From NCBI GenBank assembly GCA_963830365.1, contig CAWHMU010000034.1, positions 1 through 54,155 on the forward strand: DNA of 54,155 nt, read 5' to 3'. Within the stretch, counting starts at the first letter, position 1. Each line of letters starts with the position of its first letter. Under the pieces are notes generated by a model. The model was not told the origin of the DNA. It did not search any database and worked only from the letters and a program-made list of their open reading frames with translations. A program made the position numbers and the translations under genes. The DNA comes from an uncultured Chlamydiae bacterium. Its GTDB lineage: Bacteria > Chlamydiota > Chlamydiia > Chlamydiales > Parachlamydiaceae. Positions 3,952-51,229 of this stretch are shown here, piece after piece.

Positions 3952-5086
3952 GGTTCATCGCACAAATGAATACCTGCCCATGATGATTCGTCAAAAAGCC
4001 TTAGTAATTGATGGTTGAAATATGAGAAGTAATGATCTATTTGTAATGTTCTCTTTGAAACAAATCGGCATTCTAGCACAGCAGGTCTAGTTAGCCTCGA
4101 TAGAGGCGGAAGCATGTAGCCATAGGTGTCAACCTATGGAATAAAATGTAGTATAAAGAGAGCCGTGAATACGGCGACAGCAATTTCGATGGAAGCTGAA
4201 TTAGATGCAATTATTATAGTATATACTATCCTTTAGTCATTGCTACCGCCGTATTCACGGCTTTGTTTCTAAACATGCGATTACCACACGCTGACGCATG
4301 TGGCTACATGCTTCAGCCTCTATCGAGACAATTGCATAAGTGACAATAAATTTGTTTATAACATAAATTTATTGCCTTTTCCCTAAAAAAACACGGATTT
4401 TTGGGAAAGGTTCAAAAGCAGGTAATACTCAAAAAATTTAAGATGATGGTAGGATGCCAGGAAACATCTTTTTTGCCCTTTTTCTCTCATTATGTAGCCC
4501 ACACCAAGGCGGAGGAACGGAGCCGCAGGTGTGGGAAAAAATTGTAAGTGATTAACCAGGGACTGGTTCTTCTTTTTATCTTTGGTCGAGATTAAACTTA
4601 AAGCCTTTTGAATCAAGGGCAAAAAAAAGAAGAACCAGTCCCTGGTTAGTTTATAATTCTCATTATACCCACACCTGCGGCTTCGTTCCTCCGCCTTGGT
4701 GTGGGCTACATAATGAGAGAAAAAGGGCAAAAAAGATGTTTCTTGGCCATTCTACAATCTTGTTTTTTCGTTAGTGTAACCGACATTTCTCTTTTTTTAA
4801 ACCATGCCGATTTTTGAGTATTTTGAGTGTTCTAGGATAGATTCTTTTCGATCCCGGATATGATTGGCTTCCAAAGAATCGCTGTATAACACACAAAACA
4901 CTTATGCAATTGCCTCTATCGAGGCTGTAAAAATGTTCTCATGGCTTGTGCCCTATCTCTTATATGGCAGTGCCAACTCAAATCCTTCCTTCACAGGATC
5001 GAACGTGCAATTTGCCATTATGTATGATTTATTTAACATCCTCCATTAGTTTACATATGGGGAGGTACGCGATTGTGCGATGAACC
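3952..5086. mobile_element. ISL3-ended MITE-A copy 1 (carries MITE-B insertion)
   Basis: Ends GGTTCATCGCACAAATGAATACCT / AGGTACGCGATTGTGCGATGAACC; 8-bp TSD AAAGTTAT at 3944-3951 and 5087-5094; interior homologous to 21899-22442. Confidence 0.9.
4325..4916. mobile_element. MITE-B (592 bp), non-autonomous partner of the IS at 50599
   Basis: TIRs GAGACAATTGCATAAGTG / CACTTATGCAATTGCCTC; TSD TATC at 4321-4324 and 4917-4920; internal ~290-bp palindrome 4456-4747; near-identical copy at 46226. Confidence 0.9.
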
Positions 5087-5140
5087 AAAGTTATTCGACA
5101 AGAGGGCTAGGGATGTGTAAGGCTATGGATAATTTCGTCC

Positions 5141-5392
5141 ATCAAAACATCCAGGATTTCGGAGCCTAAGTTAGCCGTGGCTACGGCGAAGGCATGTAGC
5201 CACAGGTGTAAACCCGTGGTAAACTCATCAGGAATATGAAGCCGTGGCTACGGCGATAGTTCGCTCGGAGACTCTGCCGCCTTAGCCCCGGCTTGAGGTC
5301 TTTAGCTCTCATTACCACAGGCTTACGCCATGTGCCTATATGCTTAAACCGTATTCACGGCTAATTCAAGCTTTTGTCCGGGATATTTCGAT
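5141..5392. repeat. REP-like multi-hairpin foldback repeat (family E, related to the MITE-A core)
   Basis: TTAGCCGTGGCTACGGCG..GCATGTAGCCACAGGTGTAAACCCGTGG ... CCACAGGCTTACGCCATGTG..CCGTATTCACGGCTAA; flanks match 26965-27125. Confidence 0.75.
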
Positions 5393-5469
5393 TAATGCCC
5401 TCATGTCGAAAAATAATGTGGAATGCAACGCAATGATAATATGCACCTTATAATTTGTTATTTATAAGA

Positions 5470-5585
5470 AACAGCCAAGAGGCGCAAAGGAACAAGCAGC
5501 AAATAACAGGATGCCAGGATAGTCAGGATAAACAGCCGCAAAGATAAAGACTAGCCTCCAATCATAAGACAGTGTCTTGGCTGTT
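5470..5585. repeat. Short inverted-repeat element (family G)
   Basis: AACAGCCAAGA..TCTTGGCTGTT arms; 5505-5576 is a reverse-complement match to ~10115-10182. Confidence 0.6.
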
Positions 5586-5667
5586 CCTTTGCATTGTTTT
5601 TTTGTGAACAAGCTCTTACTAACTACCACAAGATGTTTTATTTTTCAGATTGACGCATATGGAAAAT

Positions 5668-6189
5668 TTAGTCAGGACAGATCCCTAAGCCGCAATGCAG
5701 GAAGGTCGTCACGATATTTGCCAGGGCGATACAGAAAATTAGCCCGCAGGCAAACCTGCCAAAGCCGTTCGGCGGCGCAATCTCTGCCTGGCTATCTTTC
5801 GGATCATACAAGAAAAGCAATACCGCCACACCGAACACCACACACACGAAGACAAAAAACGACCAGGTATAAAGACTTAAGCCCAGCACAGGGATGCCAA
5901 AAGGCGGCGCAAAGCCCGGGCACACATGCAGGCTGATCTGCCGCAAGGCCACAAAGCCTCCGAAGATAGCACTAAGCAAACATAGACCGTAATGCGCCAT
6001 GCGCACGCCGAACCACACATTCAAAAGCGCCCCGCAAGCCACGCCCAGCATCCCCAGTCGCTGCAGCAGGCACAAAGGACAGGGCTGTTCATGGAAGATA
6101 AACTGCACGCCATAAGCGCTAAGCAAAACGCCGCCCAGCACCACGATCATCAAAGCATTCAAATCCCTTTGCCACACCGTCAGCATCAT
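5668..6189 (-). CDS. dsbB: Disulfide bond formation protein B family
   Basis: QPCPLCLLQR motif, RQISLHVCP, LGLSLYTWS; multiple TM helices. Confidence 0.85.
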   Translation of the reverse strand: MMLTVWQRDLNALMIVVLGGVLLSAYGVQFIFHEQPCPLCLLQRLGMLGVACGALLNVWFGVRMAHYGLCLLSAIFGGFVALRQISLHVCPGFAPPFGIPVLGLSLYTWSFFVFVCVVFGVAVLLFLYDPKDSQAEIAPPNGFGRFACGLIFCIALANIVTTFLHCGLGICPD

Positions 6190-6195
6190 CCATAC

Positions 6196-6351
6196 CTATA
6201 TGTTGATTTGCACAATATCTTTGGCATGCTGCCAAAACATCACCAGGCTGAGCACTAGACCAATAAAAACCAATGCCAGCGCCGCCAACCGCTGGCGCGC
6301 TAGCACCGCCGCTATCGCCAACGCAAATACCAGAAACAAACCCGCCATCAT
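6196..6351 (-). CDS. Small two-TM membrane protein upstream of dsbB (DUF5993-like)
   Basis: My translation (not in the ORF track): MMAGLFLVFALAIAAVLARQRLAALALVFIGLVLSLVMFWQHAKDIVQINI, 51 aa, ending 6 nt before the dsbB start. Confidence 0.7.
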   Translation of the reverse strand: MMAGLFLVFALAIAAVLARQRLAALALVFIGLVLSLVMFWQHAKDIVQINI

Positions 6352-6367
6352 AGAACATTCTCCTCTG

Positions 6368-7348: not shown

Positions 7349-7375
7349 AGCTAAACTCCTTAATCTGAATGATTT

Positions 7376-8173: not shown

Positions 8174-8186
8174 CAATCATCCCCTA

Positions 8187-8657: not shown

Positions 8658-8744
8658 CTTTGCTCCTTAAAATATCTTTAATGTCTTTTAAATTTTACTC
8701 TATAAAAGTATACTATCGATTTTATAAGCAACGATAGATTTTTA

Positions 8745-9941: not shown

Positions 9942-9963
9942 GTTAAGCCAAAGCTAAAACTTC

Positions 9964-10311: not shown

Positions 10312-10341
10312 AACTATTTTATATTCCGCCTCGCAAACTTT

Positions 10342-16090: not shown

Positions 16091-17509
16091 ATGGGTATGT
16101 GGACCAAGAAATCGCTGACGGAATTCACCTCCCATCAGGATAAGCTGCGCCGCACCCTGTCGACCCTAGATCTTATCCTGCTGGGCATCGGCTGCGTCAT
16201 CGGCGCCGGCCTCTTCTCCATCACCGGCATCGCCGCCGCCCAGAATGCCGGACCCGCCATCGTCATCGCCTTCGTGTTGGCGTCCATAGGCTGCGCCTTC
16301 GCCGGCCTATGCTATTGCGAACTTGCCACCATGATCCCCGTTTCCGGCAGCGCCTACTCCTATACCTACGCCTCCATGGGCGAACTGCCGGCCTGGCTCA
16401 TCGGCTGGAGCCTCGTGCTGGAATATGCCATCGGCGCCGGCGCTGTCGCCATCAGCTGGTCGGCCTATGCCCTCTCGCTGCTGGAAGAAATACACATCTA
16501 CCTCCCGCCCCAGATCATGGCTTCCCCCTGGCAGGCGCCCCTGCTAGCAAACGGCGGCGTGAACAGCGGCTACATCAACCTGCCAGCCATCTTGGTCATC
16601 GTGGCCATTTCCCTGTTGCTCATCAAAGGCATCCGCCAATCGGCAGCTTTCAATGCCGTCATCGTCAGCATCAAAGTCGCTATCGCCCTCGTCTTCATCG
16701 CTGTCGGCGCCTTCTATGTCGATCCCGCAAATTATGTCCCTTTCATCCCGGAAAATACCGGCACCTTCGGCGCTTTCGGCTGGAGCGGCATCTTGCGGGC
16801 TTCGGGGGTGTTGTTCTTTGCCTATATCGGCTTCGATGCCATCTCCACCACCGCTCTTGAAGCCAAAAATCCCCAACAGACCATCCCCCGTGGCATCTTA
16901 GGCGCCCTGGCCATTTGCACGGTGATCTATATCGCTTTTGGATTTGTGCTGACGGGCCTGGTCAATTACAAGGAATTGAATGTCGCCGCCCCCGTGGCCC
17001 TGGCCATCTCAAAGACACCCTTCCCCTGGCTGCAAATACTTGTCAAACTGGCGGTGCTGGCAGGGCTTACCTCGGTCATCTTGGTGCTGTTGCTCGGCCA
17101 GTCGCGCATCTTCTACGTCATGGCCAGCGACGGCCTGCTGCCGCCATATTTTGCCCGGCTGCATCCGGTATACCGTACGCCATGGATCTGCAATCTCATC
17201 CTGATGGTCCTTGTCAGCGCTCTTGCCGCCTTTGTGCCGATCGATGTGATCAGCCACATGACCAGCATCGGCACGCTGTTTGCCTTCGTGTTGGTGTGTG
17301 CAAGCGTCATGATCCTGCGCTACCGCCACCCCGAATACCCCCGTCCTTTCAAGACCCCCCTATTCCCTTGGGTGCCGCTGCTCGGCATCTTCACCTGCGC
17401 CGGCATGATGGCCTTCCTCGGCAGCGACTCGTGGCTGCGCCTCATCGCCTGGCTGCTCATCGGCCTGGCCATCTACTTCGGCTATGGCAGAAAGCACGCT
17501 CGTGCCTAA
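16091..17509 (+). CDS. APC-family (cationic amino acid-type) permease
   Basis: LGIGCVIGAGLF, YCELATMIPVSGSAYSY, FFAYIGFDAI, SIGTLFAF; ~12 TM. Confidence 0.93.
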   Translation: MGMWTKKSLTEFTSHQDKLRRTLSTLDLILLGIGCVIGAGLFSITGIAAAQNAGPAIVIAFVLASIGCAFAGLCYCELATMIPVSGSAYSYTYASMGELPAWLIGWSLVLEYAIGAGAVAISWSAYALSLLEEIHIYLPPQIMASPWQAPLLANGGVNSGYINLPAILVIVAISLLLIKGIRQSAAFNAVIVSIKVAIALVFIAVGAFYVDPANYVPFIPENTGTFGAFGWSGILRASGVLFFAYIGFDAISTTALEAKNPQQTIPRGILGALAICTVIYIAFGFVLTGLVNYKELNVAAPVALAISKTPFPWLQILVKLAVLAGLTSVILVLLLGQSRIFYVMASDGLLPPYFARLHPVYRTPWICNLILMVLVSALAAFVPIDVISHMTSIGTLFAFVLVCASVMILRYRHPEYPRPFKTPLFPWVPLLGIFTCAGMMAFLGSDSWLRLIAWLLIGLAIYFGYGRKHARA

Positions 17510-19296
17510 GAAGCTTCTTTCAAGAGCGTCTCGCGCGCTTGAATCAAGGCCGTCATGATTTGCGTACACTCCTCTTTCCTTGCCTGCCCGCATTTATCCG
17601 GATGATGGATCAGACCTAATTGGCGTATCAACCTGCCAAGATATACCTTGGCATTCTGGCTGTATTTGGCTTCATCGAAATCCCCATTGGGAGCCAATAT
17701 TTTTCTTGCCTCGGACGGGTTGTTTGGATTCAGATTCGAAAAATTAGCTTCCGCCTGTTTTGCTGCCGATGGACCCCATAACGACCAGCCCGAAAATAGG
17801 GATGTTTTCATGATTCTATCAATCTTCCAATCCATATTGTCTATGTTAGCTTTGTGATGCTTACAGGGATCTTTAGAACGGATACAAGGTTCTCTTTTCT
17901 CCCAAAACCATTTATCCTTTTCCCAAAACCACTTCGCCGACTCTTTCTTTAAACAGGCAGCAAATTCATCTCTTTCCGCCTTTAAACAGGCGGCAAGTTT
18001 TTTCTCTTCCCAAAGCTTTTCCTGCCTCAAATCTTTACTTTTGAAAAACCGATAACGAGCATCAATCGTGGAGATAAGTGATGATAAAACTCTGGCTGAC
18101 ATATGCGCCAGGTTGATGCCATAAACGACCACATTCCGAAAAGCCTTGAGCGGACTTAAGCTGCGGTTTTTCCAACTCTTTTTTATGCCATCAAATGCCT
18201 GCTTGGCAACCCCTGCTGTCGAAACTAGTGTGATAAATGGTAAAAATATATTAAAAAAAGCAGCCGTATTTTTTGCACTTTGCTTTTCTTCCATAATTCC
18301 GAAGAGAGCCACCATGGATATTGGCACAATCAAAGGCCAATGCGCAGTAACAGTGATAAATTCAGCAAATGTGGCTAGCTGTGATAGCGATGCCACTCCC
18401 CATAATGCATAATTTGCAGCCTTAGGATTTAAGGCATACTGTGCCACCCAATCGGCCGCAATCAGCGTAGCCAACAAAGCTTGTGTTTGGCTTATGTTCA
18501 AAGGATGTTTTCTCTGCGTACATGCTCCGATCAATGCCAACGGAGATATTCCATGCACATCGCTTTTGCTAACGTCCATCTTTCCTTCATTGACAAGTAG
18601 CTTAATGCATGGCGATTCCATGGCACAGGCGAAATGTAGGGGTGTTTGCCCGTCATTATTAGTAACTAGATTGAGATCAATCCCACACGCTAGAGCTTTT
18701 CTAAGAAGCTTTTCATTGCCTTGCGCTGCTGCAAAATGCAATAAGGTATTTCCTGCTCGATCTTGATGATAGATTTCCATAGATTGCCAATGCCCCGGCA
18801 AATACCCCAACATCATATCGCTGTGTAGTGTAATCCTGGTAGAAACCTCTTCAACCAGCTCGCAAATACGATTCAGCTGATTTATTTTCTCCGGATTTTG
18901 CAATACCGTCATGGAAACATCTACCTTTTGTCCAATCACGCAAGCCAGCAGCTCCGGCATCAGCGTATCGGGCCTTGACGATAGCATGGCATAGTCGTAG
19001 GCGGAAAGTTCTTGTCCGTCTTTTAGCTCTGGTTTTGCCCCCTGTGCTATCAAAAACTTAGCAATCGACATATGACCTTTGCTGACAGCCATGTGAAGCG
19101 GCAGGTCTCCATCGGACGGCGTATTGACCAAAGCTAACAGAGCATCGCCTACAGGAGTTTTGGCTACTAATGCCTGCAGCGCAGGAAGGTCGCCCTGGCG
19201 GCAAGCTTTTAGTACTAACGGGAGGGGGTTTTCAGCCACCGCACCCCCCCAGTTCCATGGCAGCAGGGACGGACAAGCAGCATCAATCGATGGCAT
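17506..19296 (-). CDS. Ankyrin-repeat membrane protein with C-terminal J-domain-like (HPD) module, paralog 1
   Basis: LPLHMAV, GNTLLHFAA and GQTPLHFAC ankyrin motifs; central hydrophobic segments; LIHHPDKC...LIQARETL. Confidence 0.85.
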   Translation of the reverse strand: MPSIDAACPSLLPWNWGGAVAENPLPLVLKACRQGDLPALQALVAKTPVGDALLALVNTPSDGDLPLHMAVSKGHMSIAKFLIAQGAKPELKDGQELSAYDYAMLSSRPDTLMPELLACVIGQKVDVSMTVLQNPEKINQLNRICELVEEVSTRITLHSDMMLGYLPGHWQSMEIYHQDRAGNTLLHFAAAQGNEKLLRKALACGIDLNLVTNNDGQTPLHFACAMESPCIKLLVNEGKMDVSKSDVHGISPLALIGACTQRKHPLNISQTQALLATLIAADWVAQYALNPKAANYALWGVASLSQLATFAEFITVTAHWPLIVPISMVALFGIMEEKQSAKNTAAFFNIFLPFITLVSTAGVAKQAFDGIKKSWKNRSLSPLKAFRNVVVYGINLAHMSARVLSSLISTIDARYRFFKSKDLRQEKLWEEKKLAACLKAERDEFAACLKKESAKWFWEKDKWFWEKREPCIRSKDPCKHHKANIDNMDWKIDRIMKTSLFSGWSLWGPSAAKQAEANFSNLNPNNPSEARKILAPNGDFDEAKYSQNAKVYLGRLIRQLGLIHHPDKCGQARKEECTQIMTALIQARETLLKEAS

Positions 19297-19391
19297 AGAA
19301 AGCCTCGTTTATTAAATTTTAAAGAAACATACTAATTTCAAACACATGTTAAAAGCAAGAATGATCCATTACGAAAGCAGGGCCTTTTCTT

Positions 19392-20963
19392 TCAATAAGG
19401 GCTCGCTGAAGGATGCAAGGTTGCCAGCATGTGATCGATTTTACGCTTGGCGGCGTTTATTTTATCTTTATGCTGCTGGCAGGCATCAGGATCTCTTTGC
19501 CAGAACCACTTGCCAGATTGCTGCTTTTCACAAGCTGCCAGCTTGGCTTCTTCCGAGTGCATTTCCTGACTGACACCCAGGCTATTGAAATGCCTATATC
19601 CCAAACCGATGGTCTTGAAGATTTTTGCAGATAGATGGGCCATATTGATGCCATAGACGACAGCATTCCTAAAGGCCTTAAGAGGATTGAGGTTTCTGTT
19701 CTTCCATGCCTTCTTTATCCCGCCAAACACCGATATGGCCACTGCCGCCGCCGCCAGACAGGCATGCGCATTTAAGAGCATGGCCTTAAAATCGCCCCAT
19801 GCCGGATCGGCTACATCGACGGCAATGCCAGAAATGCGTTTTAGCGCGGTTAAGGATGCCATCCACAACCCCGCGCATCCGGCGATAAGGCCCTTAGCCA
19901 ACACCGGACGATGGGCGCAAAGATGTACCAAGCCGGCCAACATAGGGCCATAACTGGCTAGCTGGGCGAGCGACGCCAAGCCCCATATGGCATAATTGCC
20001 CTTCTCGGCAGAAAGAGCATAATGCACTGCCCATTCGGCCGCAATCAATGTGGCCATTAGGGCTTGCGTACGGCTTAAATTTAAAGGATCGTGCTTGTGC
20101 GCACAGGCTCCAATCAGTGCCAACGGCGATATCCCATAGGCATCGCTTTTACTGATATCTATCTTGGCTTGGTTGATAAGCAGCTGGATACATGGCGATG
20201 CCATGGCACAGGCGAAATGCAAAGGGTTTTGTCCGTCTTTGTTGACGACTAGATTCAAATCAATGCCATGTGCTAACGCTATCACAAGGAGTTTCTCGTT
20301 GCCCTGTGTCGCAGCAAAATGCAGCAGGGTATTTCCCGCCGCATCGATTTGTTCATCGAGGCTTATGTATTTCTTATTAAACCCGTATCCAAAGACCACA
20401 TGGGGGGAAACCTGGCATGCCGAATCCAACGCCGGTGCTAACAGGGCTTTGGATGTCGCAAAAACAGGATATTGAATATCTTCCATCTGTTCGTCCGTGA
20501 CAGCTACCCCTTTACCAGCCATGCCTTTAATATACTCACAGACGAGTTCTAAGTGGCCAGGATTGTGCAATACCGTCGAGGCGGCATCCACCTTATGCCC
20601 GATCACATAAGCCAGCAGCTCGGGCATCAGCTGATCGCGCCTTATCGACATCATGGCATAATCGTAGGCGGTCAGCCTCTGTCCGTCTTTTAACTCAGGC
20701 TTAGCTCCCTGCTCGATCAAAAATTTGGCGATAGGCATATGTCCACTGCTGACCGCGAGATGCAAAGCCAAATCCCCGTCCAGCGGCAGATTGACCAAAG
20801 CCAATGGCGCTGCGGCTAATAGTTTCTGCACCGCGGGCAGGTCGCCCAAGCGGCAAGCTTTTAGCAATACATGCAGGGGATTTTCAGCGCTTTCACCCAC
20901 CCAGTTCCATGGCCATAGGCAGGCACAGACAGCAGTGATCGATGGCACAGGCATCTCCTCCAA
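19392..20963 (-). CDS. Ankyrin-repeat membrane protein, paralog 2 (no J-like tail); start may be ATG 20954
   Basis: Clearly homologous to 17506-19296 and 23377-25137 through the ankyrin and TM region; ends before the HPD module. Confidence 0.85.
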   Translation of the reverse strand: MEEMPVPSITAVCACLWPWNWVGESAENPLHVLLKACRLGDLPAVQKLLAAAPLALVNLPLDGDLALHLAVSSGHMPIAKFLIEQGAKPELKDGQRLTAYDYAMMSIRRDQLMPELLAYVIGHKVDAASTVLHNPGHLELVCEYIKGMAGKGVAVTDEQMEDIQYPVFATSKALLAPALDSACQVSPHVVFGYGFNKKYISLDEQIDAAGNTLLHFAATQGNEKLLVIALAHGIDLNLVVNKDGQNPLHFACAMASPCIQLLINQAKIDISKSDAYGISPLALIGACAHKHDPLNLSRTQALMATLIAAEWAVHYALSAEKGNYAIWGLASLAQLASYGPMLAGLVHLCAHRPVLAKGLIAGCAGLWMASLTALKRISGIAVDVADPAWGDFKAMLLNAHACLAAAAVAISVFGGIKKAWKNRNLNPLKAFRNAVVYGINMAHLSAKIFKTIGLGYRHFNSLGVSQEMHSEEAKLAACEKQQSGKWFWQRDPDACQQHKDKINAAKRKIDHMLATLHPSASPY

Positions 20964-21120
20964 TTGAATTTTGAAAGATACTTCCCGATACTAAACACAG
21001 ATCCGCATCAAACGCAATCGATTAGATGATATTTTAAACTTCTACAGCTAGGGAATCAGCCTTGCGCCACGGCCTTTTGATAATAGATTTGAACGACGCG
21101 CAGCAAAAATAACAGGATTT

Positions 21121-21847
21121 TATTCATCGCACCATCGCGTACCTATCTGAGAGGATTCGTCAAAAAGACTTAATAGTGGCTGGTTGGAAAGCGAGAATTA
21201 ACAATATATTTGTAAGATTCTCTTTGAAACAAATCGACATTCTAGCACAGAAGGTCTAGTTAGCCTCGATAGAGGCGGAAGCATGTAGCCATAGGTGTCA
21301 ACCTATGGAATGAAATGTAGCAAAAAGTGAGCCGTGAATACGGCGACAGCAACTTCGAGGGAAGTTTAATCCTATACAATTATGATAGCAGATAATATTC
21401 TTTAGTCGATGCTGTAGCCGTATTCACGGCTTTGTTTATAAACATGCGATGACCACACGCTGACGCATGTGGCTACATGCTTTCGCCTCTATCGAGGCTT
21501 TTAAAATGTTCTCATGGTTTGTGTGCCCTGTCGCTTATCTGGCAGCACTAGCTTAACTCCTACCTTCACAGGAGCGAACGCGCAACTTGCGGATTTTTAT
21601 GATGCATTATTTGCAACGACCTCGATTAATTTACATGGGGCAAGGTACTCATTTGAGGGAGTTGCAAAAAGATTTGGCATCTCTAGGATTGAAAGTTGCA
21701 TCGATGATTGTACCTGCATGGACCGTTTTTCAATTCTAGAAGAGCTAAAATCCCAAAAAAGCGTGTTTTTATCAGGAGTCGACGCCTAATTAAGGAGAAA
21801 TTAAAATCATTTATATTTTTGCAACGCCCTCATTTGTGTGGCGAGCC
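21121..21847. mobile_element. ISL3-ended MITE-A copy 2 (degenerate left end; MITE-D in right TIR)
   Basis: TTCATCGCACCATCGCGTACCT ... AGGTACTCATTT[D]GTGTGGCGAGCC; interior nearly identical to copy 3. Confidence 0.85.
21655..21831. mobile_element. MITE-D (177 bp)
   Basis: TIRs GAGGGAGTTGCAAAAA / TTTTTGCAACGCCCTC; TSD ATTT at 21651-21654 and 21832-21835. Confidence 0.85.
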
Positions 21848-21898
21848 ATTAAAAATTAGATTAGATGAATAGCATGACCCTAATATCCTGTTATTTTT

Positions 21899-22442
21899 GG
21901 TTCATCGCACAATCGCGTACCTGTCCTAGAGGATTCGTCAAAAAGACTTAATAGTGGCTGGTTGAAAAGCGAGAATTAACAATATATTTGTAAGGTTCTC
22001 TTTGAAACAAATCGACATTCTAGCACAGAAGGTCTAGTTAGCCTCGATAGAGGCGGAAGCATGTAGCCATAGGTGTCAACCTATGGAATGAAATGTAGCA
22101 AAAAGTGAGCCGTGAATACGGCGACAGCAACTTCGAGGGAAGTTGAATTAAATGCGATTATTACACCATATAATATCCTTTTGTCATTGCTGTCGCCGTA
22201 TTCACGGCTTTGTTTCTAAACATGCGATGACCACACGCTGACGCATGTGGCTACATGCTTCCGCCTCTAGCGAGGCTTTAAAAATGTTCTCATGGCTTGC
22301 GCCCTGTCGCTTATATGGCAGTACTGGCTCAACTCCTACCTTCACAGGAGCGAACATGCAATTTGCGGATTTTTATGATGCATTATTTGCAATGACCTCG
22401 ATTAATTTACATAAGGCGAGGTACTCATTTGTGTGATGAGCC
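21899..22442. mobile_element. ISL3-ended MITE-A copy 3 (intact, 544 bp)
   Basis: GGTTCATCGCACAATCGCGTACCT / AGGTACTCATTTGTGTGATGAGCC; 8-bp TSD TTATTTTT at 21891-21898 and 22443-22450. Confidence 0.92.
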
Positions 22443-22510
22443 TTATTTTTGCTCCGGTGTGTTACCTTCTATGCACCCTCTTCTAGGGTGTATCATTTAA
22501 CCATAGAATA

Positions 22511-22567
22511 CCCAGGGCTGCGCTAGCGCTTGCCCTGGGCTACATGCCCTCACTCCCTTTCTGGGGT
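22511..22567. repeat. REP-like hairpin unit
   Basis: CCCAGGGC..GCCCTGGGCTACATG, sharing the GGCTACAT tail with the MITE-A and MITE-B hairpins. Confidence 0.5.
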
Positions 22568-22655
22568 GGGTTGTCAATATAGCTAGATTTGACACTTATG
22601 TTTGCGGCGGCCGCGGCAAACTGCAGCCATGCAAAACCATGAAGGGATGAACAGT

Positions 22656-23375
22656 TCAACCATTTGCCCTTGCGGGGCGCACCGGGGCGTGCGTGCGCAC
22701 AAAAAGTGTGCCCTTGCCGCTGAATTCGCACACATAGCCTTCGCCGGAAGCAAAAAAACTGAACGCCTTCTTGCCCAGCAATCTGACCTTGCAATCCAAC
22801 CCTTCCGTAAAGGCCAGCACATGATTGTTGTCGACCACGACCGGCTTGGCAGGGTTCACTTCGATCGGCACAATGGCGCTGTTATCGGAATGGAAAAATA
22901 CTTTCCCCGGCAGCCCGTCCTTCAACGAGGCCTGGAATTTCATCAGGCCCGTACCCTTCCAATCGATCACTCTATCAAAGCGGCTGGTCAGCTCCACATT
23001 GGGCGATGAAGCCAAATAGCTGCCTGCAACCAGGTTGATCTTGTTCTGCGAAATGGGATCCAGATAATATTCAGCGATGTGTCCCGGCTTTGGAGTGGCC
23101 AAGCTAAGCCACGCCCCTGCCTCTTGCGCCTTAAAGGTATTGGTAAAAAGGCTTTCCCCGCTGAAAAACATCCTTTTGAATACGCTCCAGCAGCTCTTAC
23201 CGGACATCGCCGTTTCCATCGTCACGCCGCGGCCGGCTAAAAAAGCCCCCGGCTCGGCGTCGATCTTTTCGCCGGCCTTAAGCTGGACAGTGACCTGGCT
23301 CTCGTAGATAGGATGATGGAACTCTTGCCCAGGAATCCTGGCCTGCGGCAGCGGGCTGTTTATAACTGTTAACAT
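22656..23375 (-). CDS. AIM24 / TIGR00266 family protein
   Basis: AEPGAF, FKRMFFSGESLFTNTF, GSYLAS, VVDNNHVLAF and SGEGYVCEFSGKG motifs. Confidence 0.88.
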   Translation of the reverse strand: MLTVINSPLPQARIPGQEFHHPIYESQVTVQLKAGEKIDAEPGAFLAGRGVTMETAMSGKSCWSVFKRMFFSGESLFTNTFKAQEAGAWLSLATPKPGHIAEYYLDPISQNKINLVAGSYLASSPNVELTSRFDRVIDWKGTGLMKFQASLKDGLPGKVFFHSDNSAIVPIEVNPAKPVVVDNNHVLAFTEGLDCKVRLLGKKAFSFFASGEGYVCEFSGKGTLFVRTHAPVRPARANG

Positions 23376-23376
23376 C

Positions 23377-25137
23377 TTAAACTCCTAGGAGAAGTGTTTT
23401 TCTAGCTTCTGTTATAGTTCTAAATATGATTTCGCATTCATCCTTCTGCTCTTTTGGACATTTGTCAGGATGGAATCGCAGAACTAAAGGACGATACAAA
23501 TTGTTAATGTATTCTTTTTCATTTTCTTCGTAGCACTTGTCTTCAAAAACACCTCCGGCAGCCAGTATTTTTTTGGCATCGCCCAACTCGTTAGGGTTAA
23601 GATTAACATCCGGCTTTGCAGTATTGTTCGTAACTGCATTTGAACATGATTTTGCAGTGGATGATCCCCAAAGTGAAGACACCCATGAAAAGAGAGATTT
23701 GTTCATGATTCTTTCAATCTTGCTCTCAATGTTACTGTATTCCTTTTCAATTTGCCTACATTCTTCACTATGCCGCGACCTATATGTCGGGCAATTAAAA
23801 GCATAGTCGGCTGCACTTGCCGCCTTCTGAGCTTGCAAAGGGATCGTTCTAAAATACCTGAATCCCCAATCGATGGTGGAAGCAAGCTTTGGAGCCATTC
23901 CTGCAAAATTTATGCCATAAACGGCGACGTTCCTAAGGGCTTTAAGAGGATTTAAACTTTTGTTCTTCCATGCCTTTTGGACGCCTTCAAAGGCCGATTT
24001 GGCTATGCATACCGTCGATGCTATGTTGATGAAAGGCAAAACAGCACCTAAATGGTCTCGACCCGCTATCCATATTGCTGCAAAACTCAGATTGGCAGTA
24101 CCTGGCCAATGCACGGCCATGGTGAGAAATTCAGCAAAACGCGTTAGCTGAGATAAAGATGCCAAGCCCAATAAGGCATAGTTGGCAGCCGCCGGGTTCA
24201 GCGCATAATGCGCCACCCACTCGGCCGCAATCAGCGTCGCCAAAACAGCTTGCGTACGGCTCAAATTCAGCGGATTTTTCTTGTCGGCACAGGCGCCGAC
24301 CAAGGCTAATGGAGAGATGCCCTTACCATCGTTCTGGCTGATACCCATTTTGGCTTCATTGACCAGCATTTTGATACATGAAGATTCCATAGCACAAGCA
24401 AAATGCAGCGGGGTTTGTCCTTCTTTGTTTTTAAGCAGATTGAGGTCAATTCCATGCTCAAGCGCTATTTTAAGCAGCTTCTCGTTGCCTTGCGCCGCCG
24501 CGAAATGCAGCAGGGTGTTGCCTGCGGCATCCATATGCTCATCAATTCTTAGCAGTTTCTTGTCCAATCCGAAGCCGAACATAAAGTGCGGCAACACCTT
24601 GGCTGGTTGAAGTTCAATGCCTGCTTGGCCTGTCGCCACCGCGCCGGCAGGAAACTGCACATCTTTCATCTGTTCTTCGGTCACTTGCGCACCCTTGACA
24701 GCAATTTCTTTGATTTTTTCACAGAGACTATGTAGCTCTGCTAATTTCTGCGGATCCTGCAATACTGTCATGGAAGCTTCCACTTTCTGTCCAATCACGC
24801 AAGCCAGCAGCTCTGGCATCAGTTGATCGCGGCTTGACGATAGCATGACATAGTCGTAAGCGGATAACTCCTGTCCATCCTTTAACCCCGGCTTAGCTCC
24901 GTTTTCAATCAGCAGTTTTACAATTTCCATCTGCCCTTGGCCGATGGCGACATGCAACGGCAACTCGCCATTTAGCGGCGTATTGAGCAAATCTGCTGGC
25001 GCAGTGGCTAATAATTTCTGTAAAGCCGGCAGATCGCCCTGGCCACACGCCTTTAGTATTAAAGGCTGTGGATTTGCAGCACTTGTACCGCCCCAGTTCC
25101 AAGGCAGTATGGATGAAATTGAATTGATGGATGGCAT
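23377..25137 (-). CDS. Ankyrin-repeat membrane protein with C-terminal J-domain-like (HPD) module, paralog 3
   Basis: Ankyrin motifs LPLHVAI, GNTLLHFAA, GQTPLHFAC; TM region; YRPLVLRFHPDKC...ITEARKTL. Confidence 0.85.
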   Translation of the reverse strand: MPSINSISSILPWNWGGTSAANPQPLILKACGQGDLPALQKLLATAPADLLNTPLNGELPLHVAIGQGQMEIVKLLIENGAKPGLKDGQELSAYDYVMLSSSRDQLMPELLACVIGQKVEASMTVLQDPQKLAELHSLCEKIKEIAVKGAQVTEEQMKDVQFPAGAVATGQAGIELQPAKVLPHFMFGFGLDKKLLRIDEHMDAAGNTLLHFAAAQGNEKLLKIALEHGIDLNLLKNKEGQTPLHFACAMESSCIKMLVNEAKMGISQNDGKGISPLALVGACADKKNPLNLSRTQAVLATLIAAEWVAHYALNPAAANYALLGLASLSQLTRFAEFLTMAVHWPGTANLSFAAIWIAGRDHLGAVLPFINIASTVCIAKSAFEGVQKAWKNKSLNPLKALRNVAVYGINFAGMAPKLASTIDWGFRYFRTIPLQAQKAASAADYAFNCPTYRSRHSEECRQIEKEYSNIESKIERIMNKSLFSWVSSLWGSSTAKSCSNAVTNNTAKPDVNLNPNELGDAKKILAAGGVFEDKCYEENEKEYINNLYRPLVLRFHPDKCPKEQKDECEIIFRTITEARKTLLLGV

Positions 25138-25280: not shown

Positions 25281-26607
25281 GGCTCATCGTGCAAATGAGT
25301 ACCTAACTTTGTGTAAACTATAGAGACGTAATTTAAAATACTCCATATCTCGAAATCCGTAAGCTTGGCGCTTCATTGTTTTAATCTTGTTATTGATCCC
25401 CTCAGTCTTTGCATTGGTGATGGGATGTTTAAAATAGTTTACCAATCCTTGCCAATGCCTAAGCAGGGTTTTTCCTGCCTTCTCCAGCTCATGTATCCCT
25501 GACTCCATAGTATCCATTATCCACCAAGCAAGAAATCTAGCCCCCTCTTTCACCGTCTGTTTAGACCAAAATTGACGAATTTGCTCCTTCATTGCATGAG
25601 CCAAGGCTATCGGTTGATTTACTTCTAAAAGGCATTCCAAACTACTTTTTCTCTTAGAATCAAGTTTTTCATAGTTCCTTAAAAGTAAAAATCTCATTCC
25701 TTTAATGACTCTTAAGCCAACTTCATTGCATTTTGCCTGCTGATCTCTCCGGATTTCCTCGATTGCCGTATTCAATAATGCCACGACATGAAATCGATCA
25801 AATACTATGTCAACATCCGGTAAATGATTTTGTACAGCTGATGCATAGGCTGCATTCATGTCCATAGCCATCGCTTTGAGCTGTAAAGCCTTTTCCTTCA
25901 ACTCTAAGAGGAATGGGATTACGCTTCCCATGCTTTTACCTTCTACGGCGTGAATGATTTCTCCTGTCTCAAGGTTGATGAAAATCGTCATGTATTCATG
26001 CCCTTTTCGAATACTAAACTCATCGATGCCCACGTATCGAAGGGATGTAAAATCGAAACTCTTATACTCCCTCTGAAGATATGCTTTATGTATACCCTTC
26101 ACGAGACTCCAAGAAACCCCAAGGAATTTTGCCACATGTTCTATTGTTGCAAACCCCATAAGATTAATGACAAACTTCTCAAAGGAAGTGGTATAACGCT
26201 TTCTGGGCTTGACAAAGGGAATCGGGGGCCACCAAACGTGTAGGCAATTGACGCATTGAAGACGATGTAGCCGCAGGTTGAGAAAAGCCATTTTGTTCCC
26301 TAGAGGGGCCATGCGAAGCCTACGTAACTTCAGTCCCTTCGATATGGATTCACTGTTCCCACAGCAAGGACAAAGTGTTTTTTTGGGTTGAAGAAGCGCC
26401 TCGAAAAGTATTTTGTCTTCATGATATTCACGATTCAGGACTTGAACATCTTCGATCTGATTGGTATGGTAAAGCAGTGAAGCAGGCATATTAAATCTCC
26501 TTTTTTGTCGAAGGATTTAATAAATTGTCTGCTTCTCTTTTTCAACTAGTTAAACTAGCCCCATTTCTTCGTTCTCCTCGGCTAGGTACTCATTTGCGCG
26601 ATGAGCC
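25281..26607 (-). mobile_element. Complete ISL3-family IS (1327 bp)
   Basis: TIRs GGCTCATCGTGCAAATGAGTACCTA / TAGGTACTCATTTGCGCGATGAGCC; 8-bp TSD ATTGTTAT at 25273-25280 and 26608-26615. Confidence 0.96.
25284..26489 (-). CDS. ISL3-family transposase
   Basis: 401 aa; GIDEFSIRKGH, MAMDMN, IVFDRFHV, EGINNKIKTMKRQAYGFRD. Confidence 0.96.
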   Translation of the reverse strand: MPASLLYHTNQIEDVQVLNREYHEDKILFEALLQPKKTLCPCCGNSESISKGLKLRRLRMAPLGNKMAFLNLRLHRLQCVNCLHVWWPPIPFVKPRKRYTTSFEKFVINLMGFATIEHVAKFLGVSWSLVKGIHKAYLQREYKSFDFTSLRYVGIDEFSIRKGHEYMTIFINLETGEIIHAVEGKSMGSVIPFLLELKEKALQLKAMAMDMNAAYASAVQNHLPDVDIVFDRFHVVALLNTAIEEIRRDQQAKCNEVGLRVIKGMRFLLLRNYEKLDSKRKSSLECLLEVNQPIALAHAMKEQIRQFWSKQTVKEGARFLAWWIMDTMESGIHELEKAGKTLLRHWQGLVNYFKHPITNAKTEGINNKIKTMKRQAYGFRDMEYFKLRLYSLHKVRYSFAR

Positions 26608-43850: not shown

Positions 43851-43859
43851 TTCCATTTA

Positions 43860-45724: not shown

Positions 45725-45852
45725 CACACCTCAAAACTGCATACATTTGGTCGCGACTTCGGACGGCCGCAAACAGCGGCGGCCGCATGAGCCACAGGCG
45801 TTAGCCTATGGCGTGAAGGATAGACCAATCCCTTTCACCCCCAAAATAATTA

Positions 45853-46225
45853 GGTTCATCGCACAATCGCGTACCTGTCTGAGAGGATTCGTTAAAAAGA
45901 CTTAATAATGGCTGGTTGGAAAACGAGAATTAACAATATATTTGTGTGGTTCTCTTTGAAACAAATCGACATTCTAGCACAGAAGATCTAGTTAGCCTCG
46001 ATAGAGGCGGAAGCATGTAGCCATAGGTGTCAACCTATGGAATGAAATGTAGCAAAAAGTGAGCCGTGAATACGGCGACAGCAACTTCGAGGGAGGTTGA
46101 ATTAAATGCGATTATTATACCATATAATATCCTTTAGTCATTGCTGTCGCCGTATTCACGGCTTTGTTTCTAAACATGTGATGACCACACGCTGACGCAT
46201 GTGGCTAGATGCTTCCGCCTCTATC
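45853..46225. mobile_element. ISL3-ended MITE-A copy 4 (left part, up to MITE-B)
   Basis: Starts GGTTCATCGCACAATCGCGTACCT; interior matches copy 3; right part absent. Confidence 0.85.
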
Positions 46226-46817
46226 GTGACAATTGCATAAGTGACAATAAATTTGTTTATAACATAAATTTATTGCCTTTTTCCTAAAAAAACACGGATT
46301 TTTGGGAAAGGTTCAAAAGCAGGTAATACTCAAAAAATTTAAGATGATGGTAGGATGCCAGGAAACATCTTTTTTGCCCTTTTTCTCTCATTATGTAGCC
46401 CACACCAAGGCGGAGGAACGGAGCCGCAGGTGTGGGAAAAAATTGTAAGTGATTAACCAGGGACTGGTTCTTCTTTTTATCTTTGGTCGAGATTAAACTT
46501 AAAGCCTTTTGAATCAAGGGCAAAAAAAAGAAGAACCAGTCCCTGGTTAGTTTATAATTCTCATTATACCCACACCTGCGGCTTCGTTCCTCCGCCTTGG
46601 TGTGGGCTACATAATGAGAGAAAAAGGGCAAAAAAGATGTTTCTTGGCCATTCTACAATCTTGTTTTTTCGTTAGTGTAACCGACATTTCTCTTTTTTTA
46701 AACCATGCCGATTTTTGAGTATTTTGAGTGTTCTAGGATAGATTCTTTTCGATCCCGGATATGATTGGCTTCCAAAGAATCGCTGTATAACACACAAAAC
46801 ACTTATGCAATTGCCTC
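46226..46817. mobile_element. MITE-B copy 2 (592 bp)
   Basis: Near-identical to 4325-4916; preceded by GCCTC-TATC; no right-hand TSD. Confidence 0.9.
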
Positions 46818-48608
46818 GTAGGGGTTCTTCTCTTTAGATACTTCCACCTTAATAGATTATAAAGAGAAGAACCCCTAGGGGGTAGAGCACTTTTCTTGCT
46901 GTCCCGTAGCTGCGGCTGCATTCGCTGCGCTCGCAAGCCTTAGCTGACGGGCTTCCGAGTAACAATAGGTTGAATGCTTACGAAACTTATGCCTGCGTTA
47001 TTGGTGGATATTTCATCATTTCTCCTGCTTTTGGAGTCGAAAGGCATTAATCATTAAAAAGGCGGAGGAAAGAACATAATGCCAGGCGATCTTCCGAACG
47101 GGATAGCTATGCTTCCCAATGATATTATCGCGATTCTTTCCGACCAAGCTACAAAACGGGCATTCAGCACCAGTGCTCGATGGGTCAATTTTTTCCACGA
47201 ATTTTTGATTACCGCTATTCAACCGGTCTTACTTTTTTTGTCTTTTTTACGCCGCTACGGCAACTAGTTTATAACCTAATTTTTCAGCTTTTTTATGCAA
47301 CCCAGCCAAGTTTTTCATTGCATGCATTTTTTCATTATATTCGGCTCCTTTTTCATAATATTGCCAGCCTTCCTTACACATGTGATATACCATTGTCGCT
47401 AGCTTATGCGCTCCAGCCTTAATCCCTTTAGAGTTGTCCGTTCGGCCGCATATGCGCCTGATATGTGCTCCCAATGCTGCATCTGATTTTTTAGCTGCCA
47501 CTGCAGACATTCTTAAAGCTTGTGAAATGTAATTGGCGCTTGGTTTTTGCCTTTTGCTTTTACGTCGTTTGCCTCCTGAAACATTGTTGCCGGGGGACAG
47601 TTTCAACCAGGAAGAAAATGCTTTTTCGCTATTCCATGCACTTACGTCAGTCCCTCCAAGTTCTGAATAAATGAGTAGAGCAGTACTATCTGCTATACCT
47701 GGCAGGGCAGTTAGGTCTATTCCCGTTTTTCTCCAGAGAGTGTCTCTGACACCAAAACAAAGATCATTTTTCTTAGGTTTTTTGAATTGAGAAAACTGAG
47801 GACGCTTTTTTTTATCCTTATGGTTCTCTGGTGGAGGCGTATTGACTACATCAGGAAATCGCTCAAGCTCCTTCTGAATGCATTCGTCACATGCGTCCAG
47901 CTGTTTATGTGCAAAATCGTATTGATCTAGGGCTTGCTTTAGCGAAAAAATATGTTCATCTTGATAATTCCCTGTCAGGGCTGCTACAAATAGGCTCTCT
48001 TCTTTTTTGCAAAGCTTATTCCTCATTGCAGCTAACTTATATGGATCTCTTTCACCGGCTGCTATTGCTCGTGTTATATTTAATCCGGAGACTCCCGCTA
48101 TATCGCTTACAGCGGTGCTCAGCTTGATATTCATTAACTGCAAGGCTTTTTCCATATGCAGAAGTGCATATTGCTTCGTTTTGATGACATTCATGCGCTG
48201 TCTTACATACGCCCGCAATTTTAAACGATCGCGTGGTGGGCGATAAGCAGCTCTTAATAGACCACTAGAATATAATGTTTGGATCCATTGAGCATCCACC
48301 ACATCAGTTTTTCTGCCTGGTGGATTTTTTACATTTTTAGCATCGACTAAGACAGGCATCAAGCCTGATTCTTCCATAATTTCATATAGGGGAATCCAAT
48401 AAACACCCGTAGCTTCCATAACACCAATTTCTACTTTAGCCTCTTTAAGAACTTTGACTATTTCACGGAGTTGAGGTGTCGTTGTACCAAATTCCCTCAC
48501 GTAAGAACCACCTTTACCATCAGGAATAGCTACATGGATTAGCTATAATGGTCCCGGAAATTTGGACAATGGTCTAAGCTAATACCCTCTTTAAGAAAAG
48601 AGGTGAAA

Positions 48609-48902
48609 ATGAGCCGAACAAGAAAAAAATATCCCCCAGAATTTAAAGTCAAAGCCGTGCTTGAGATTTTGAAGGGAGAAAAGACTGCAAGTCAATTATC
48701 CGGTGAACTGGGAGTGCATCCTATCGTGTTGTCGGAGTGGAAAAAACACTTTTTATCAACTGCCACAACTGTATTTGAAAAACCGAGCAAGATGACTGGG
48801 ACAGCACAGGAAGTTAAAGAAAAGGCAGAACTTTTCGAGCAAATCGGACGTCTTAAAATGGAGGTGGAGTGGCTTAAAAAAAAGTTAGGATGTTTGACTT
48901 AA
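48609..48902 (+). CDS. IS3 transposase OrfA (HTH)
   Basis: RKKYPPEFKVKAVLE..WKK..QIGRLKMEVEWLKKK; A8G slippery site at 48876-48884. Confidence 0.9.
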   Translation: MSRTRKKYPPEFKVKAVLEILKGEKTASQLSGELGVHPIVLSEWKKHFLSTATTVFEKPSKMTGTAQEVKEKAELFEQIGRLKMEVEWLKKKLGCLT

Positions 48903-49732
48903 ATTCTCGACGACTTCTAATAGAGCCAGATCATAAGAAGTTGTCGCTATCAAGTCAGTGTCATTTGCTTGGAATGTCACGATCTGGGTTGTATTATAAG
49001 GCCAAACAGCCCAACGAGGAAGATTTGGCACTCATGCGGGCTATTGATGAACAATATCTTCAAACTCCCTTCTATGGAAGAAGACGGATGACGATAGCAA
49101 TGAGAGCTCAAGGTTTTTTTGTAGGAGGAAAAAGGATTCGAACGGCGATGCAGACAATGGGTTTAGAAGCAATCTATCCCAAGCCCAATCTGAGTGCGGC
49201 AAATAAGGAGCATAAAAAGTTTCCTTACCTACTAAGAGGGATTGTAGTAGATAAACCCGACTTGGCATGGGCTGCAGATATCACCTACGTTCCTTTGTTG
49301 AAAGGATTTGGATACCTTTTTGCGATCATCGATTGGTTTAGCAGGTATGTGATCGAATGGGAACTTTCGAATCTGCTGGATGCGGAATTTTGCATTAATG
49401 CATTAGAAAGAGGGCTTTCTCGAGCTAGTCCTGAGATATTCAACACAGACCAAGGAGTTCAATTCACCTGCTGTTGGTTTGTAGAGAGATTAGAAGCAGG
49501 CGGAGTCAGAATCAGTATGGATGGAAAAGGCAGAGCCCTTGATAATGTGTTTATTGAAAGGCTCTGGAGAAGCGTGAAGTATGAAGAGATTTATCCAAAA
49601 GGGTATGAAAGCTTAAAAGATGTCCGTAATGGACTTAAGAGTTATTTTAAGTTTTACAACGAGAGCAGGCCACACCAAGGACTGGGTTATAAAACGCCTG
49701 CGGAGGTGTATTTTTCTAGGCAGAGCCTTTAG
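48890..49732 (+). CDS. IS3 transposase OrfB (DDE integrase core)
   Basis: WAADITY, IIDWFSRY, NTDQGVQF, DNVFIERLWRSVKYE, YN..RPHQGL. Confidence 0.93.
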   Translation: MFDLNSRRLLIEPDHKKLSLSSQCHLLGMSRSGLYYKAKQPNEEDLALMRAIDEQYLQTPFYGRRRMTIAMRAQGFFVGGKRIRTAMQTMGLEAIYPKPNLSAANKEHKKFPYLLRGIVVDKPDLAWAADITYVPLLKGFGYLFAIIDWFSRYVIEWELSNLLDAEFCINALERGLSRASPEIFNTDQGVQFTCCWFVERLEAGGVRISMDGKGRALDNVFIERLWRSVKYEEIYPKGYESLKDVRNGLKSYFKFYNESRPHQGLGYKTPAEVYFSRQSL

Positions 49733-50209
49733 GAAAAGGGGGCAAGCCCCCTTACCCCCCTTCCGCCTTCGTTGGACTTGGATTACCTTGATTTTTAAAG
49801 GAACTTGAGGGGGCAAGCCCCCTCAAACTCCCCCTTTAGCTGCAAGAACAACAAAAACTTGAGGTTATTAGCTTAACTTTTCCCATTTTTTGTCTAGACA
49901 AAGGGGACCACTTTAAGCTTATCTCCTATATCGATGCCAGCAACAGTAGGATCGATATATCCAAGCCTGTTTTTATGTTGTTGTTTTTTGAAATGATTGG
50001 AATTGCTATTATTAGACATGAACGATCTCCTTTTAGCTTTTTACTGTGAGAAAAAGAAAGCTATTATAAGAGATCGTTCTTTTTTTTTCGAATTATGACA
50101 ACCGTTACTTTCCAGATATCAGCGTTAAACCGCTTGGGCGCTACAAAGAGATGGGCTTCGCCTATGTCATGCTATGCATCTTTGTCCTGCATAACTGGAT
50201 GAACCCTAA

Positions 50210-50598
50210 GTCAACCACTCATTTGTGTGATGAGCCACAATCGCGTACCTGTCCGAGAGGATTCATTAAAAGACTTAATAATAGCTGGTTGAAAAACGAG
50301 AATTAACAATATATTTGCAAGGTTTTCTTTGAAACAAATCGTCATTCTAGCACAGAAGGTATAGTTAGCCTCGATAGAGGCGGAAGCAGGTAGCCATAGG
50401 TGTCAACCTATGGAATAAAATGTAGTATAAAGAGAGCCGTGAATACGGCGACAGCAATTTCTATGGAAGCTGAATTAGATGCAATTATTATAGTCTATAC
50501 TATCCTCTAGTCATTGCTGCCGCCGTATTCACGGCTTTGTTTCTAAACATGCGATGACCACCCGCTGACGCATGTGGCTACCTGCTTCCGCCTCTATC
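50210..50598. mobile_element. MITE-C end fused to MITE-A copy 5 (left part)
   Basis: GTCAACCACTCATTTGTGTGATGAGCC (50210-50236) abuts ACAATCGCGTACCT..; the interior runs to GCCTCTATC at 50598. Confidence 0.85.
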
Positions 50599-51229
50599 GA
50601 GGCAATTGCATAAGTGACAAAGAATTATTTTAAATAATTGTTGAATAAAAAAGGCTCCACAGGGTAATATGAAGCTTCTTAAAGAACCATTTACCGAGGG
50701 AGCCAAATGTCATTCAGAACAAATCTATCAAATTTCTGGAGTAATGTCCAATCAAGTCTTTTCCCTATGCTTGAAAATAACTTAGGGGAACTGTCTAAAA
50801 ATCACAAGAAGCTCGCTGCTATTTTGGAATTGGTAAGAATAGAAGAGTGGATTCCTTCGACTTACTGGAATTTCGGAAGACGAGCTCAAGATAAGCACTC
50901 CATAGCTAGAGCATTTATAGCAAAGATTGTTTTCAAATTACCCTATACTACTCAAATTATCGAACTTCTTAAAACAGATAAACAACTTCGAGTACTGTGT
51001 GGATGGAATGCATGGAGTAAGATACCCTCTGAATCAAAATTTTCAAGAGTTTTTAGTGAGTTTGCAAAATATTGTCTTCCAGAGAAGGTCCATCAAGCAT
51101 TAATCAAAGAGGTTTATAAAGATCAAATCGTAGGCCATGTCGTTAAAGACTCTGCACCTTTAAAAGCTCGAGAAAAAGCACTAAAAAAACCAAGCAAAGC
51201 AGTTCGTGTAAAATTAAAAAATCAAAGAC
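50599..51229 (+). mobile_element. IS5/IS1182-like IS, left part (interrupted by IS21)
   Basis: Left end GAGGCAATTGCATAAGTGACAA matches the MITE-B TIR; followed by a transposase 5' region. Confidence 0.8.

Follow-up and report, generated by a model that had tools for sequence, protein, structure and literature searches.

IS1182-like elements and their MITEs insert at a fixed base of palindromes carried by ISL3-type MITEs in an uncultured Chlamydiae bacterium

Results

Nested elements in the window

The stretch of DNA analysed here (the window; positions 1 to 54,155 of contig CAWHMU010000034.1, called C34 below) comes from the assembly of an uncultured Chlamydiae bacterium of the Parachlamydiaceae (GCA_963830365.1; G000 below; 2.73 Mb in 48 contigs, 82% complete). 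It contains an IS1182-like insertion sequence (IS) and MITEs (miniature inverted-repeat transposable elements) having the same ends, which sit inside palindromes of other, ISL3-type MITEs. Other C numbers denote contigs of G000, further G numbers (G004, G006, G041, G048 and so on) the genomes used for comparison, and P0002 is the intact transposase of G000.

Three elements on the forward strand, namely two copies of the 592-bp MITE-B (4325-4916 and 46226-46817) and the left part of the IS (50599-51229), begin directly after GCCTC-TATC, and their left ends read GAGAC-, GTGAC- and GAGGC-, respectively. These junctions are as given in a preliminary description of this DNA, and so is the doubling of TATC around the first copy (4321-4324 and 4917-4920). 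The second copy, which differs from the first at two positions, has TATC of MITE-A on its left and GTAG-GGGTTCTTC of another MITE, MITE-D, on its right, a point that the preliminary description had missed; since the flanks belong to two hosts, this copy is a hybrid without duplication. The IS retains 631 bp with a frame of only 189 codons (50707-51276; DUF772) before an IS21 element (istA, istB; 51230-54155, forward strand) that reaches the contig end interrupts it at 51229/51230, and no match to its missing half was found in the rest of the 82% complete assembly.

The hosts of these three elements are copies of MITE-A, all on the forward strand. Copy 1 (3952-5086; 8-bp duplication AAAGTTAT) encloses the first MITE-B, while copies 4 (45853-46225, stopping at TATC) and 5 (50236-50598) are left parts in front of the second MITE-B and the IS. 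As described before, the corresponding site is empty in copy 2 (21123-21655; GCCTC-TATC-GAGGC at 21485-21498) and in copy 3 (21899-22442, the full 544 bp with the 8-bp duplication TTATTTTT; GCCTC-TAGC-GAGGC at 22263-22276), and the host strings divide MITE-A into two subtypes. Inside MITE-A, two arms face each other in inverted orientation, and each contains one GCCTC-N4-GAGGC hairpin and one GTAG-led hairpin. In the left arm of copy 1 (4091-4139, forward strand), TTAG and an empty GCCTC-GATA-GAGGC hairpin are followed by GTAG and the second hairpin, and the same arm recurs at 21260, 22038, 45992 and 50365, in each case empty. MITE-D is represented on the forward strand by a left piece (46818-46953), which starts at its first CCCC-N3-GGGG hairpin and is interrupted by IS110 and IS3, and by a right end (50140-50236) that abuts MITE-A copy 5; its second hairpin (near 46870-46882) is empty. 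A separate mini-element was considered for a 56-bp unit running from GGGGTTCTTC to GAAGAACCCC and rejected, because within MITE-D this unit forms the spacer that separates the two hairpins.

The host MITEs belong to ISL3-type transposons. An intact ISL3 element (25281-26607, reverse strand, 1327 bp, 8-bp duplication ATTGTTAT) has the terminal repeats of MITE-A, and the ends of MITE-A (539-544 bp) and MITE-D (410 bp) match five ISL3 copies of 1327-1328 bp in G000. Duplications of 8 bp flank hosts at C34:3952, C34:21899, C2:2443, C3:37326 and C42:17611. Judged by the shared ends, the ISL3 element of the window likely mobilises the host MITEs, and the order ISL3, MITE, IS or MITE proposed earlier is borne out, as is the view that the target is mobile, multicopy and intergenic. 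A third host, MITE-E (about 380 bp), has a related ISL3-like end for which a cognate transposase was not identified; MITE-D and MITE-E carry the hairpins ACCCC-N3-GGGGT and ACCCC-N4-GGGGT. G000 holds 282 ISL3-type ends of one kind, among them 63 pairs with 8-bp duplications that delimit frequently nested elements of 201-1328 bp, an unusually rich load for a chlamydia-like genome.

An IS1182-like transposase

The intact relative of the window IS lies at C1:1-1463, a 1463-bp element with inverted ends that encodes the 374-amino-acid P0002 (C1:230-1354), to which the truncated frame is 67% identical. P0002 matches DUF772 (PF05598, 1.8e-9) and DDE_Tnp_1 (PF01609, 5.3e-12), both over the cut-off, with D148, D270 and E331 as a candidate catalytic triad. 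Among five NCBIfam models the IS1182 model NF033551 scored highest, yet its 73 bits fall far short of the cut-off of 270, and the IS5 models were likewise below theirs (45.5/110, 35.7/140 and 32/140 bits). Eight of nine near-full-length plasmid relatives, ISUnCu17 included (38% identity), are annotated as IS1182, at only 38-40% identity to P0002, and the nearest transposase relatives are Chlamydiae records, two of which carry the name Parachlamydiaceae. Because the NF033551 score is far under the cut-off, the element is best labelled IS1182-like and is not filed as a member of IS1182; the earlier assignment to a DDE element of this kind with its own MITEs agrees with these results. One ISUnCu17 copy, flanked by a 4-bp duplication, is located in a class 1 integron, where qacEdelta1 begins (L057, NZ_AP026405.1); our search of accessible papers gave none on this IS.

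Non-coding elements sharing the IS ends fall into size classes of 592, 299, 179, 176 and 171 bp, and these common ends suggest that a P0002-type transposase moves the MITEs. A 4-bp target duplication was present in 10 of 14 automatically paired elements of G000.

Target sites in the G000 genome

We collected 45 ends with a family-type interior, 44 of them with a flank (the end at C1:1 has none), excluding ten GAGAAAATTGC matches inside another repeat and single weak matches without a repeated interior; sites were tallied by hand, with C2/C38 and C47 counted as one site each. A CC[CT]C half-site lies 3-4 bases before 38 of the 44 ends, compared with 1% of random positions (p = 5e-70, a value that overstates the enrichment because the ends of a given element do not count as independent of each other). 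The duplication measures 4 bp and has G as its first base on one strand at 39/44 ends.

According to the preliminary description, the elements always enter the same base of MITE-A. Genome-wide this does not hold: only 11 of the 44 flanks read GCCTC-N4, while 27 read [AT]CCCC-N3/4, mostly in MITE-D and MITE-E. The left hairpin of MITE-A is occupied as well (C42, C31, C41, C45, C48), so that both of its hairpins are in use. Of 29 filled sites, 10 are in MITE-A and 19 in other repeats, and with 104 MITE-A hairpins empty (8.8% filled) as against 26 empty D/E-type sites (42% filled), the fill rate is lowest in MITE-A (Fisher p = 4e-6). MITE-A thus shares its role with two other hosts and, counted per site, is used least. 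The preliminary description had contrasted its reading with one in which most copies lie in unrelated targets; most do lie in other hosts, but the sequence pattern there is the same. Every retained copy is intergenic.

The filled sites of G000 have stems of 5-6 bp and loops of 3-4 bases; at 3-base loops the duplicated bases comprise the loop and one stem base, in a constant register. A fourth hairpin family, AGCCCC-AAG-GGGGCG and its variants, has 68 copies, none of them filled, although their folding energies (-4.8 to -5.2 kcal/mol) are in the range of the used sites (-4.4 to -5.4 kcal/mol). Structure alone is therefore insufficient. The rule RCCYC-GNNN-GRGKY describes 165 sites in G000, of which 142 are in the three hosts, and does not match any of the four most frequent types of unused hairpin; being derived from the same data, it is circular and no test, and shows only that no MITE-specific signal is needed. 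Furthermore, none of the 32 GTCC tandem arrays in G000 lies beside a listed end.

Independent insertions and hybrids

The two MITE-B copies of the window differ at 2 of 592 bases, in contrast to their hosts, which share 87.7% identity over 373 bp. A tree of 30 MITE-A rows places filled hosts in both main clades next to empty sisters, and a sibling of host copy 5 on C28 (99.8% identical) has the same site empty. A MITE-B on C42 is identical to the copy at 46226 and sits in the opposite MITE-A hairpin, although its host is a sister of C34:45853. The end variant of the 46226 copy recurs in a MITE-E on C45. The insertions are independent, as had been proposed from the two subtypes, and the incongruence of hosts and inserts rules against a single insertion with co-amplification as the main cause.

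Hybrids with unlike flanks were found at C34:46226, C3:23989, C45:55368-59054 and on C47. Their structure would agree with adjacent deletion or with recombination among copies, and the junction at 46226 may also be a mis-assembly. As a separate observation, a degenerate IS1182-like end follows CCCC-GTTT inside a ten-copy repeat (C18:49989 and nine more places), which may be an old insertion with subsequent co-amplification.

Repetitive extragenic palindromes in hosts and passengers

GTAG before a hairpin, inverted pairing and many extragenic copies, the marks of repetitive extragenic palindromes (REPs) and REPINs, are found at 4116-4139 of the window and in the opposite arm, and 104 of the companion hairpins are empty; the accessible text of PMC8266576 likewise describes REP doublets as inverted arms with GTAG-led hairpins. 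Y1 transposase genes are present in G000, at least two of them with REP-like flanks. The repeat of one such locus resembling those of REP-associated tyrosine transposases (RAYTs), L008, matches the repeat of MITE-E and of the MITE-B interior (89% over 47 nt), and no match to the MITE-A or MITE-D repeat was found among the four RAYT-like loci compared in this 82% complete assembly. At C45:169640-170425 (L011), a 292-amino-acid protein with two tandem Y1_Tnp domains has GTAG and TTAG hairpin repeats alongside.

MITE-B itself contains a foldback (4456-4747, no strand assigned) with 85-nt arms, whose GTAG hairpins match REPs that lie next to a RAYT-like Y1 transposase gene on C27. This doublet, absent from a 299-bp variant (C41:52258-52556), is a fourth tier of nesting.

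Related elements in other genomes

In G041, a relative with 61% identity has all 11 copies in one hairpin, GTCCT-GAA-AGGAC, with a 5-bp duplication in the 10 of 11 copies where both ends were seen. This hairpin has 254 empty copies, lies within REP doublets whose borders show no clear ISL3 ends, and is found beside RAYT-like genes at two of six loci (L119, L120). In G006, whose transposase is 58% identical, 27/35 flanks by our own reading represent one repeat, AGCCCC-GYRY-GNAGC, with 33 empty copies; at the one cleanly duplicated site that was folded, the duplication falls in the stem and not in the loop. Nine of twelve metagenome loci gave an end with its flank, and a run of C directly precedes the end in all nine.

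Of 73 genomes from the family, 21 contain MITEs that bear the same 17-bp end motif. These MITEs have 4-bp duplications in G048 (22/25 pairs), G004 (7/7) and G056 (4/6), and in these genomes (all 25 pairs of G048, 7 of G004, 6 of the pairs of G056) they lie in 9-bp tandem arrays in a fixed G-W-C register and without a hairpin: none of 33 array sites is perfectly palindromic, and two fold below -2 kcal/mol. In three more genomes, 26 of 31 sampled flanks agree with the array pattern. Altogether, GTCC/GGAC 9-bp arrays are targets in G048, G004, G056, G019, G021 and G062 (L161-L200, L205-L229), with as many as 129 ends in a single genome. Insertions of a more distantly related group (42-48% identity, GAGGG ends) lie in unrelated AT-rich sites.

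Other features of the window and the assembly

MITE-A copies 2 and 3 are surrounded by three paralogues of 523-596 codons (17506-25137), of which at least one has ankyrin repeats. At 46954-54155, IS110, IS3 and IS21 are heaped inside MITE-D and the IS1182-like IS, and IS110 breaks a REP-like arm of MITE-D near 46953; at C45:55368-59700, IS3 and IS21 with the same ends take part in a comparable pile-up. About 14 REP-doublet units are arranged in tandem at a spacing of ~360-390 bp at C16:73844-78902, where the array reaches the contig end. Short repeats every ~66-67 bp with varying flanks, at C40:87094-87710 (ten copies of the palindrome CCCC-GCAC-GGGG) and C18:13-1308, may be CRISPR-like or REP arrays.

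Discussion

Our data show insertion in a fixed register with a 4-bp duplication, by several passengers, into three host families and in independent events. The simplest account and, in our view, a probable one is that a transposase dimer reads the sequence to the exact base: the IS1182-like DDE transposase would recognise a roughly symmetric, double-stranded 14-bp site composed of R-C-C-Y-C, four bases and G-R-G-K-Y, so that IS and MITE copies enter the site and its central four bases are duplicated. In G000 such sites lie mostly in REP-like palindromes that three ISL3-type MITEs have spread, and nesting in mobile hosts would be a by-product of where the sites are.

The proposal that the sequence is read, rather than an extruded hairpin, has to be weighed against recognition of a cruciform with a loop of 3-4 bases, in which the loop is duplicated and sequence only tunes the choice. 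Hairpin targeting has been reported for IS1272 of the IS1182 family (PMC4923244, PMC5678879), and a model pathway with loop-only duplication is drawn in PMC5678879. Several of our own observations weigh on the same side. Nearly every filled site of G000, with its 5-6 bp stem, can also form a hairpin, so that cruciforms may still contribute there; the G041 target in its 11/11 copies and most of the metagenome flanks, in which C runs precede the end, can do so, too. About 20 consensus sites outside the hosts (23 listed, three of them junctions) are all unfilled, which selection, small numbers or structure could explain. The unstructured arrays, which would speak for sequence, are linked to this clade only through the ends of their MITEs, because no transposase was found and the interiors are not significantly similar: no close transposase was detected in G048, G056, G062, G063 or G004 (with P0002 as query, none in four of five genomes, where G048 gave only weak, broken matches), a DUF772 search gave nothing in four of five genomes, a DUF772 match in G019 has no similarity to P0002, and the interiors scored 120 compared with a shuffle maximum of 125. 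The array half-site (G-W-C) is also unlike that of G000. Nevertheless, we regard recognition of a cruciform as rather unlikely, given that equally stable hairpins are left unused in all 68 cases, that a stem base is always duplicated with 3-base loops in one register, that the duplication in G006 is not a loop, and that elements with the same ends use arrays without structure.

Three further explanations have much less in their favour. Dedicated homing to MITE-A, the original proposal, in which the palindrome mimics the ends of the element, builds on the match of GCCTC-N4-GAGGC to five terminal bases, on the palindromes that GAGGC-ended copies rebuild at seven junctions and on the similar resemblance between the G041 ends (GGGAC) and their target stem. 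It is largely refuted by the genome-wide flanks and now very improbable: MITE-A is filled least, [AT]CCCC half-sites predominate, no end-to-end stack of elements was found, and GAGAC-ended relatives use other half-sites, so that end mimicry as a cause is not sustained either. Single insertion per host followed by ISL3-driven co-amplification or gene conversion could apply to some composites, since a MITE-E with a 179-bp MITE on C7 and C42 is 96.5% identical with the same site and orientation, which counts against independence there; the ten-copy CCCC-GTTT repeat is a second possible case, and the sister hosts C34:45853 and C42 carry identical MITE-B copies. The latter copies are in opposite hairpins, however, and the passengers are varied (592-, 299-, 179-, 176- and 171-bp MITEs and two ISs) and occur in both orientations, in both MITE-A hairpins, within hosts that have different 8-bp duplications and next to empty sister hosts. 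As hosts and passengers are incongruent, co-amplification is refuted as the main cause, and as a general account we give it hardly any credence. Finally, near-random insertion with selection leaving copies in harmless repeats would agree with the intergenic position of all retained copies and with the AT-rich sites of the 42-48% group. Selection cannot fix a register to the base, as seen at 38/44 ends, and hundreds of harmless repeat positions, the 68 hairpins and the 32 GTCC arrays are unused in G000, which makes this the least credible of the explanations considered.

The insertions described here can be placed among known systems, for which we refer to the accessible parts of the cited papers. 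REP palindromes are known to receive, at a fixed base, ISs of the IS3, IS110, IS4, IS256 and IS5 families (PMC1525189, PMC3184786), and REP-targeting ISs of the "type 1 association" comprise ISRm22, ISPsy8, ISPa11, ISPpu9/10, IS1397 and IS621 (Tobes and Pareja 2006, PMC1525189). Like these, the copies described here split a multicopy extragenic palindrome at a single base, which is often the axis, and come with a short duplication; like ISRm22 they include hybrids with unlike repeats, ascribed there to recombination or adjacent deletion (PMC1525189). In contrast, IS1182 is absent from the families in the accessible part of that list, several repeat families are targeted here, and the G000 palindromes ride on ISL3-type MITEs. 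Type 1 association, in which all copies occupy one REP position, describes G041 (11/11) and not G000 (10/29 in MITE-A). With the IS1182 family (IS1272/TnSha1, ISUnCu17, ISPse1, ISCaa15) the element shares DUF772 with a DDE domain and short terminal repeats, and a 4-bp duplication is also seen in ISUnCu17 and reported for ISPse1 and ISCaa15 (PMC3281130, PMC3196728), while its 374-amino-acid protein is far under the NCBIfam IS1182 cut-off. Palindrome targeting by some IS1182 members is mentioned in the IS1272 papers, which refer to Siguier et al. 2015. IS1272 itself removes the hairpin that it targets and lacks a sequence consensus (PMC4923244, PMC5678879), whereas for the G000 element 4 bp are duplicated and the consensus is strong. 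An element called "IS5/IS1182" in bioRxiv 2024.06.02.596822 is, in the accessible text, an unrelated 1-kb element.

The target repeats themselves are comparable to REPs, bacterial interspersed mosaic elements (BIMEs, REPINs) and their TnpA-REP (RAYT) proteins in having GTAG before a hairpin, inverted pairs and a high copy number, and in the Y1 transposase genes with such repeats on their flanks (PMC8266576, PMC3184786, as far as accessible). Unlike REP/RAYT systems, the G000 doublets lie inside ISL3-type ends with 8-bp duplications, and for the MITE-A repeat no matching RAYT turned up among the four loci compared; since they are enclosed in this way, the doublets spread at least partly as MITE cargo. 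A search that left aside subscription journals, supplements and ISfinder notes, which may already describe the subgroup, gave no paper in which ISL3 MITEs carry REP-like targets, and for a MITE nested in another MITE it gave only a Pithovirus paper. IS insertion into REP palindromes, hybrids included, is already published, and the unusual feature is that the target is spread by another transposon.

In this context, it is conceivable, though we consider it doubtful, that a compact IS1182-like subclade in Chlamydiae retunes its target, genome by genome, to an abundant non-coding repeat. The tentative series would lead from ISL3-borne palindromes in G000 over free REP doublets in G041 and REP arms in G006 to the 9-bp arrays in G048, G004, G056, G019, G021 and G062, with the 42-48% group as an unspecific sister. 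If this were true, the clade would offer a natural series for mapping how the 14-bp target code of a DDE transposase changes, in which the targets of G000 are themselves multiplied by another transposon.

With our findings, IS1182-like elements join the ISs whose insertions occupy a fixed base in extragenic repeats, and the flanks speak to the open point of whether the IS1182 family recognises sequence or structure. If active, a 374-amino-acid transposase that prefers a 14-bp target could serve as a compact tool for site-selective integration. For the biology of these elements, the findings present a case in which another transposon spreads the target repeats, so that two families feed each other's nesting.

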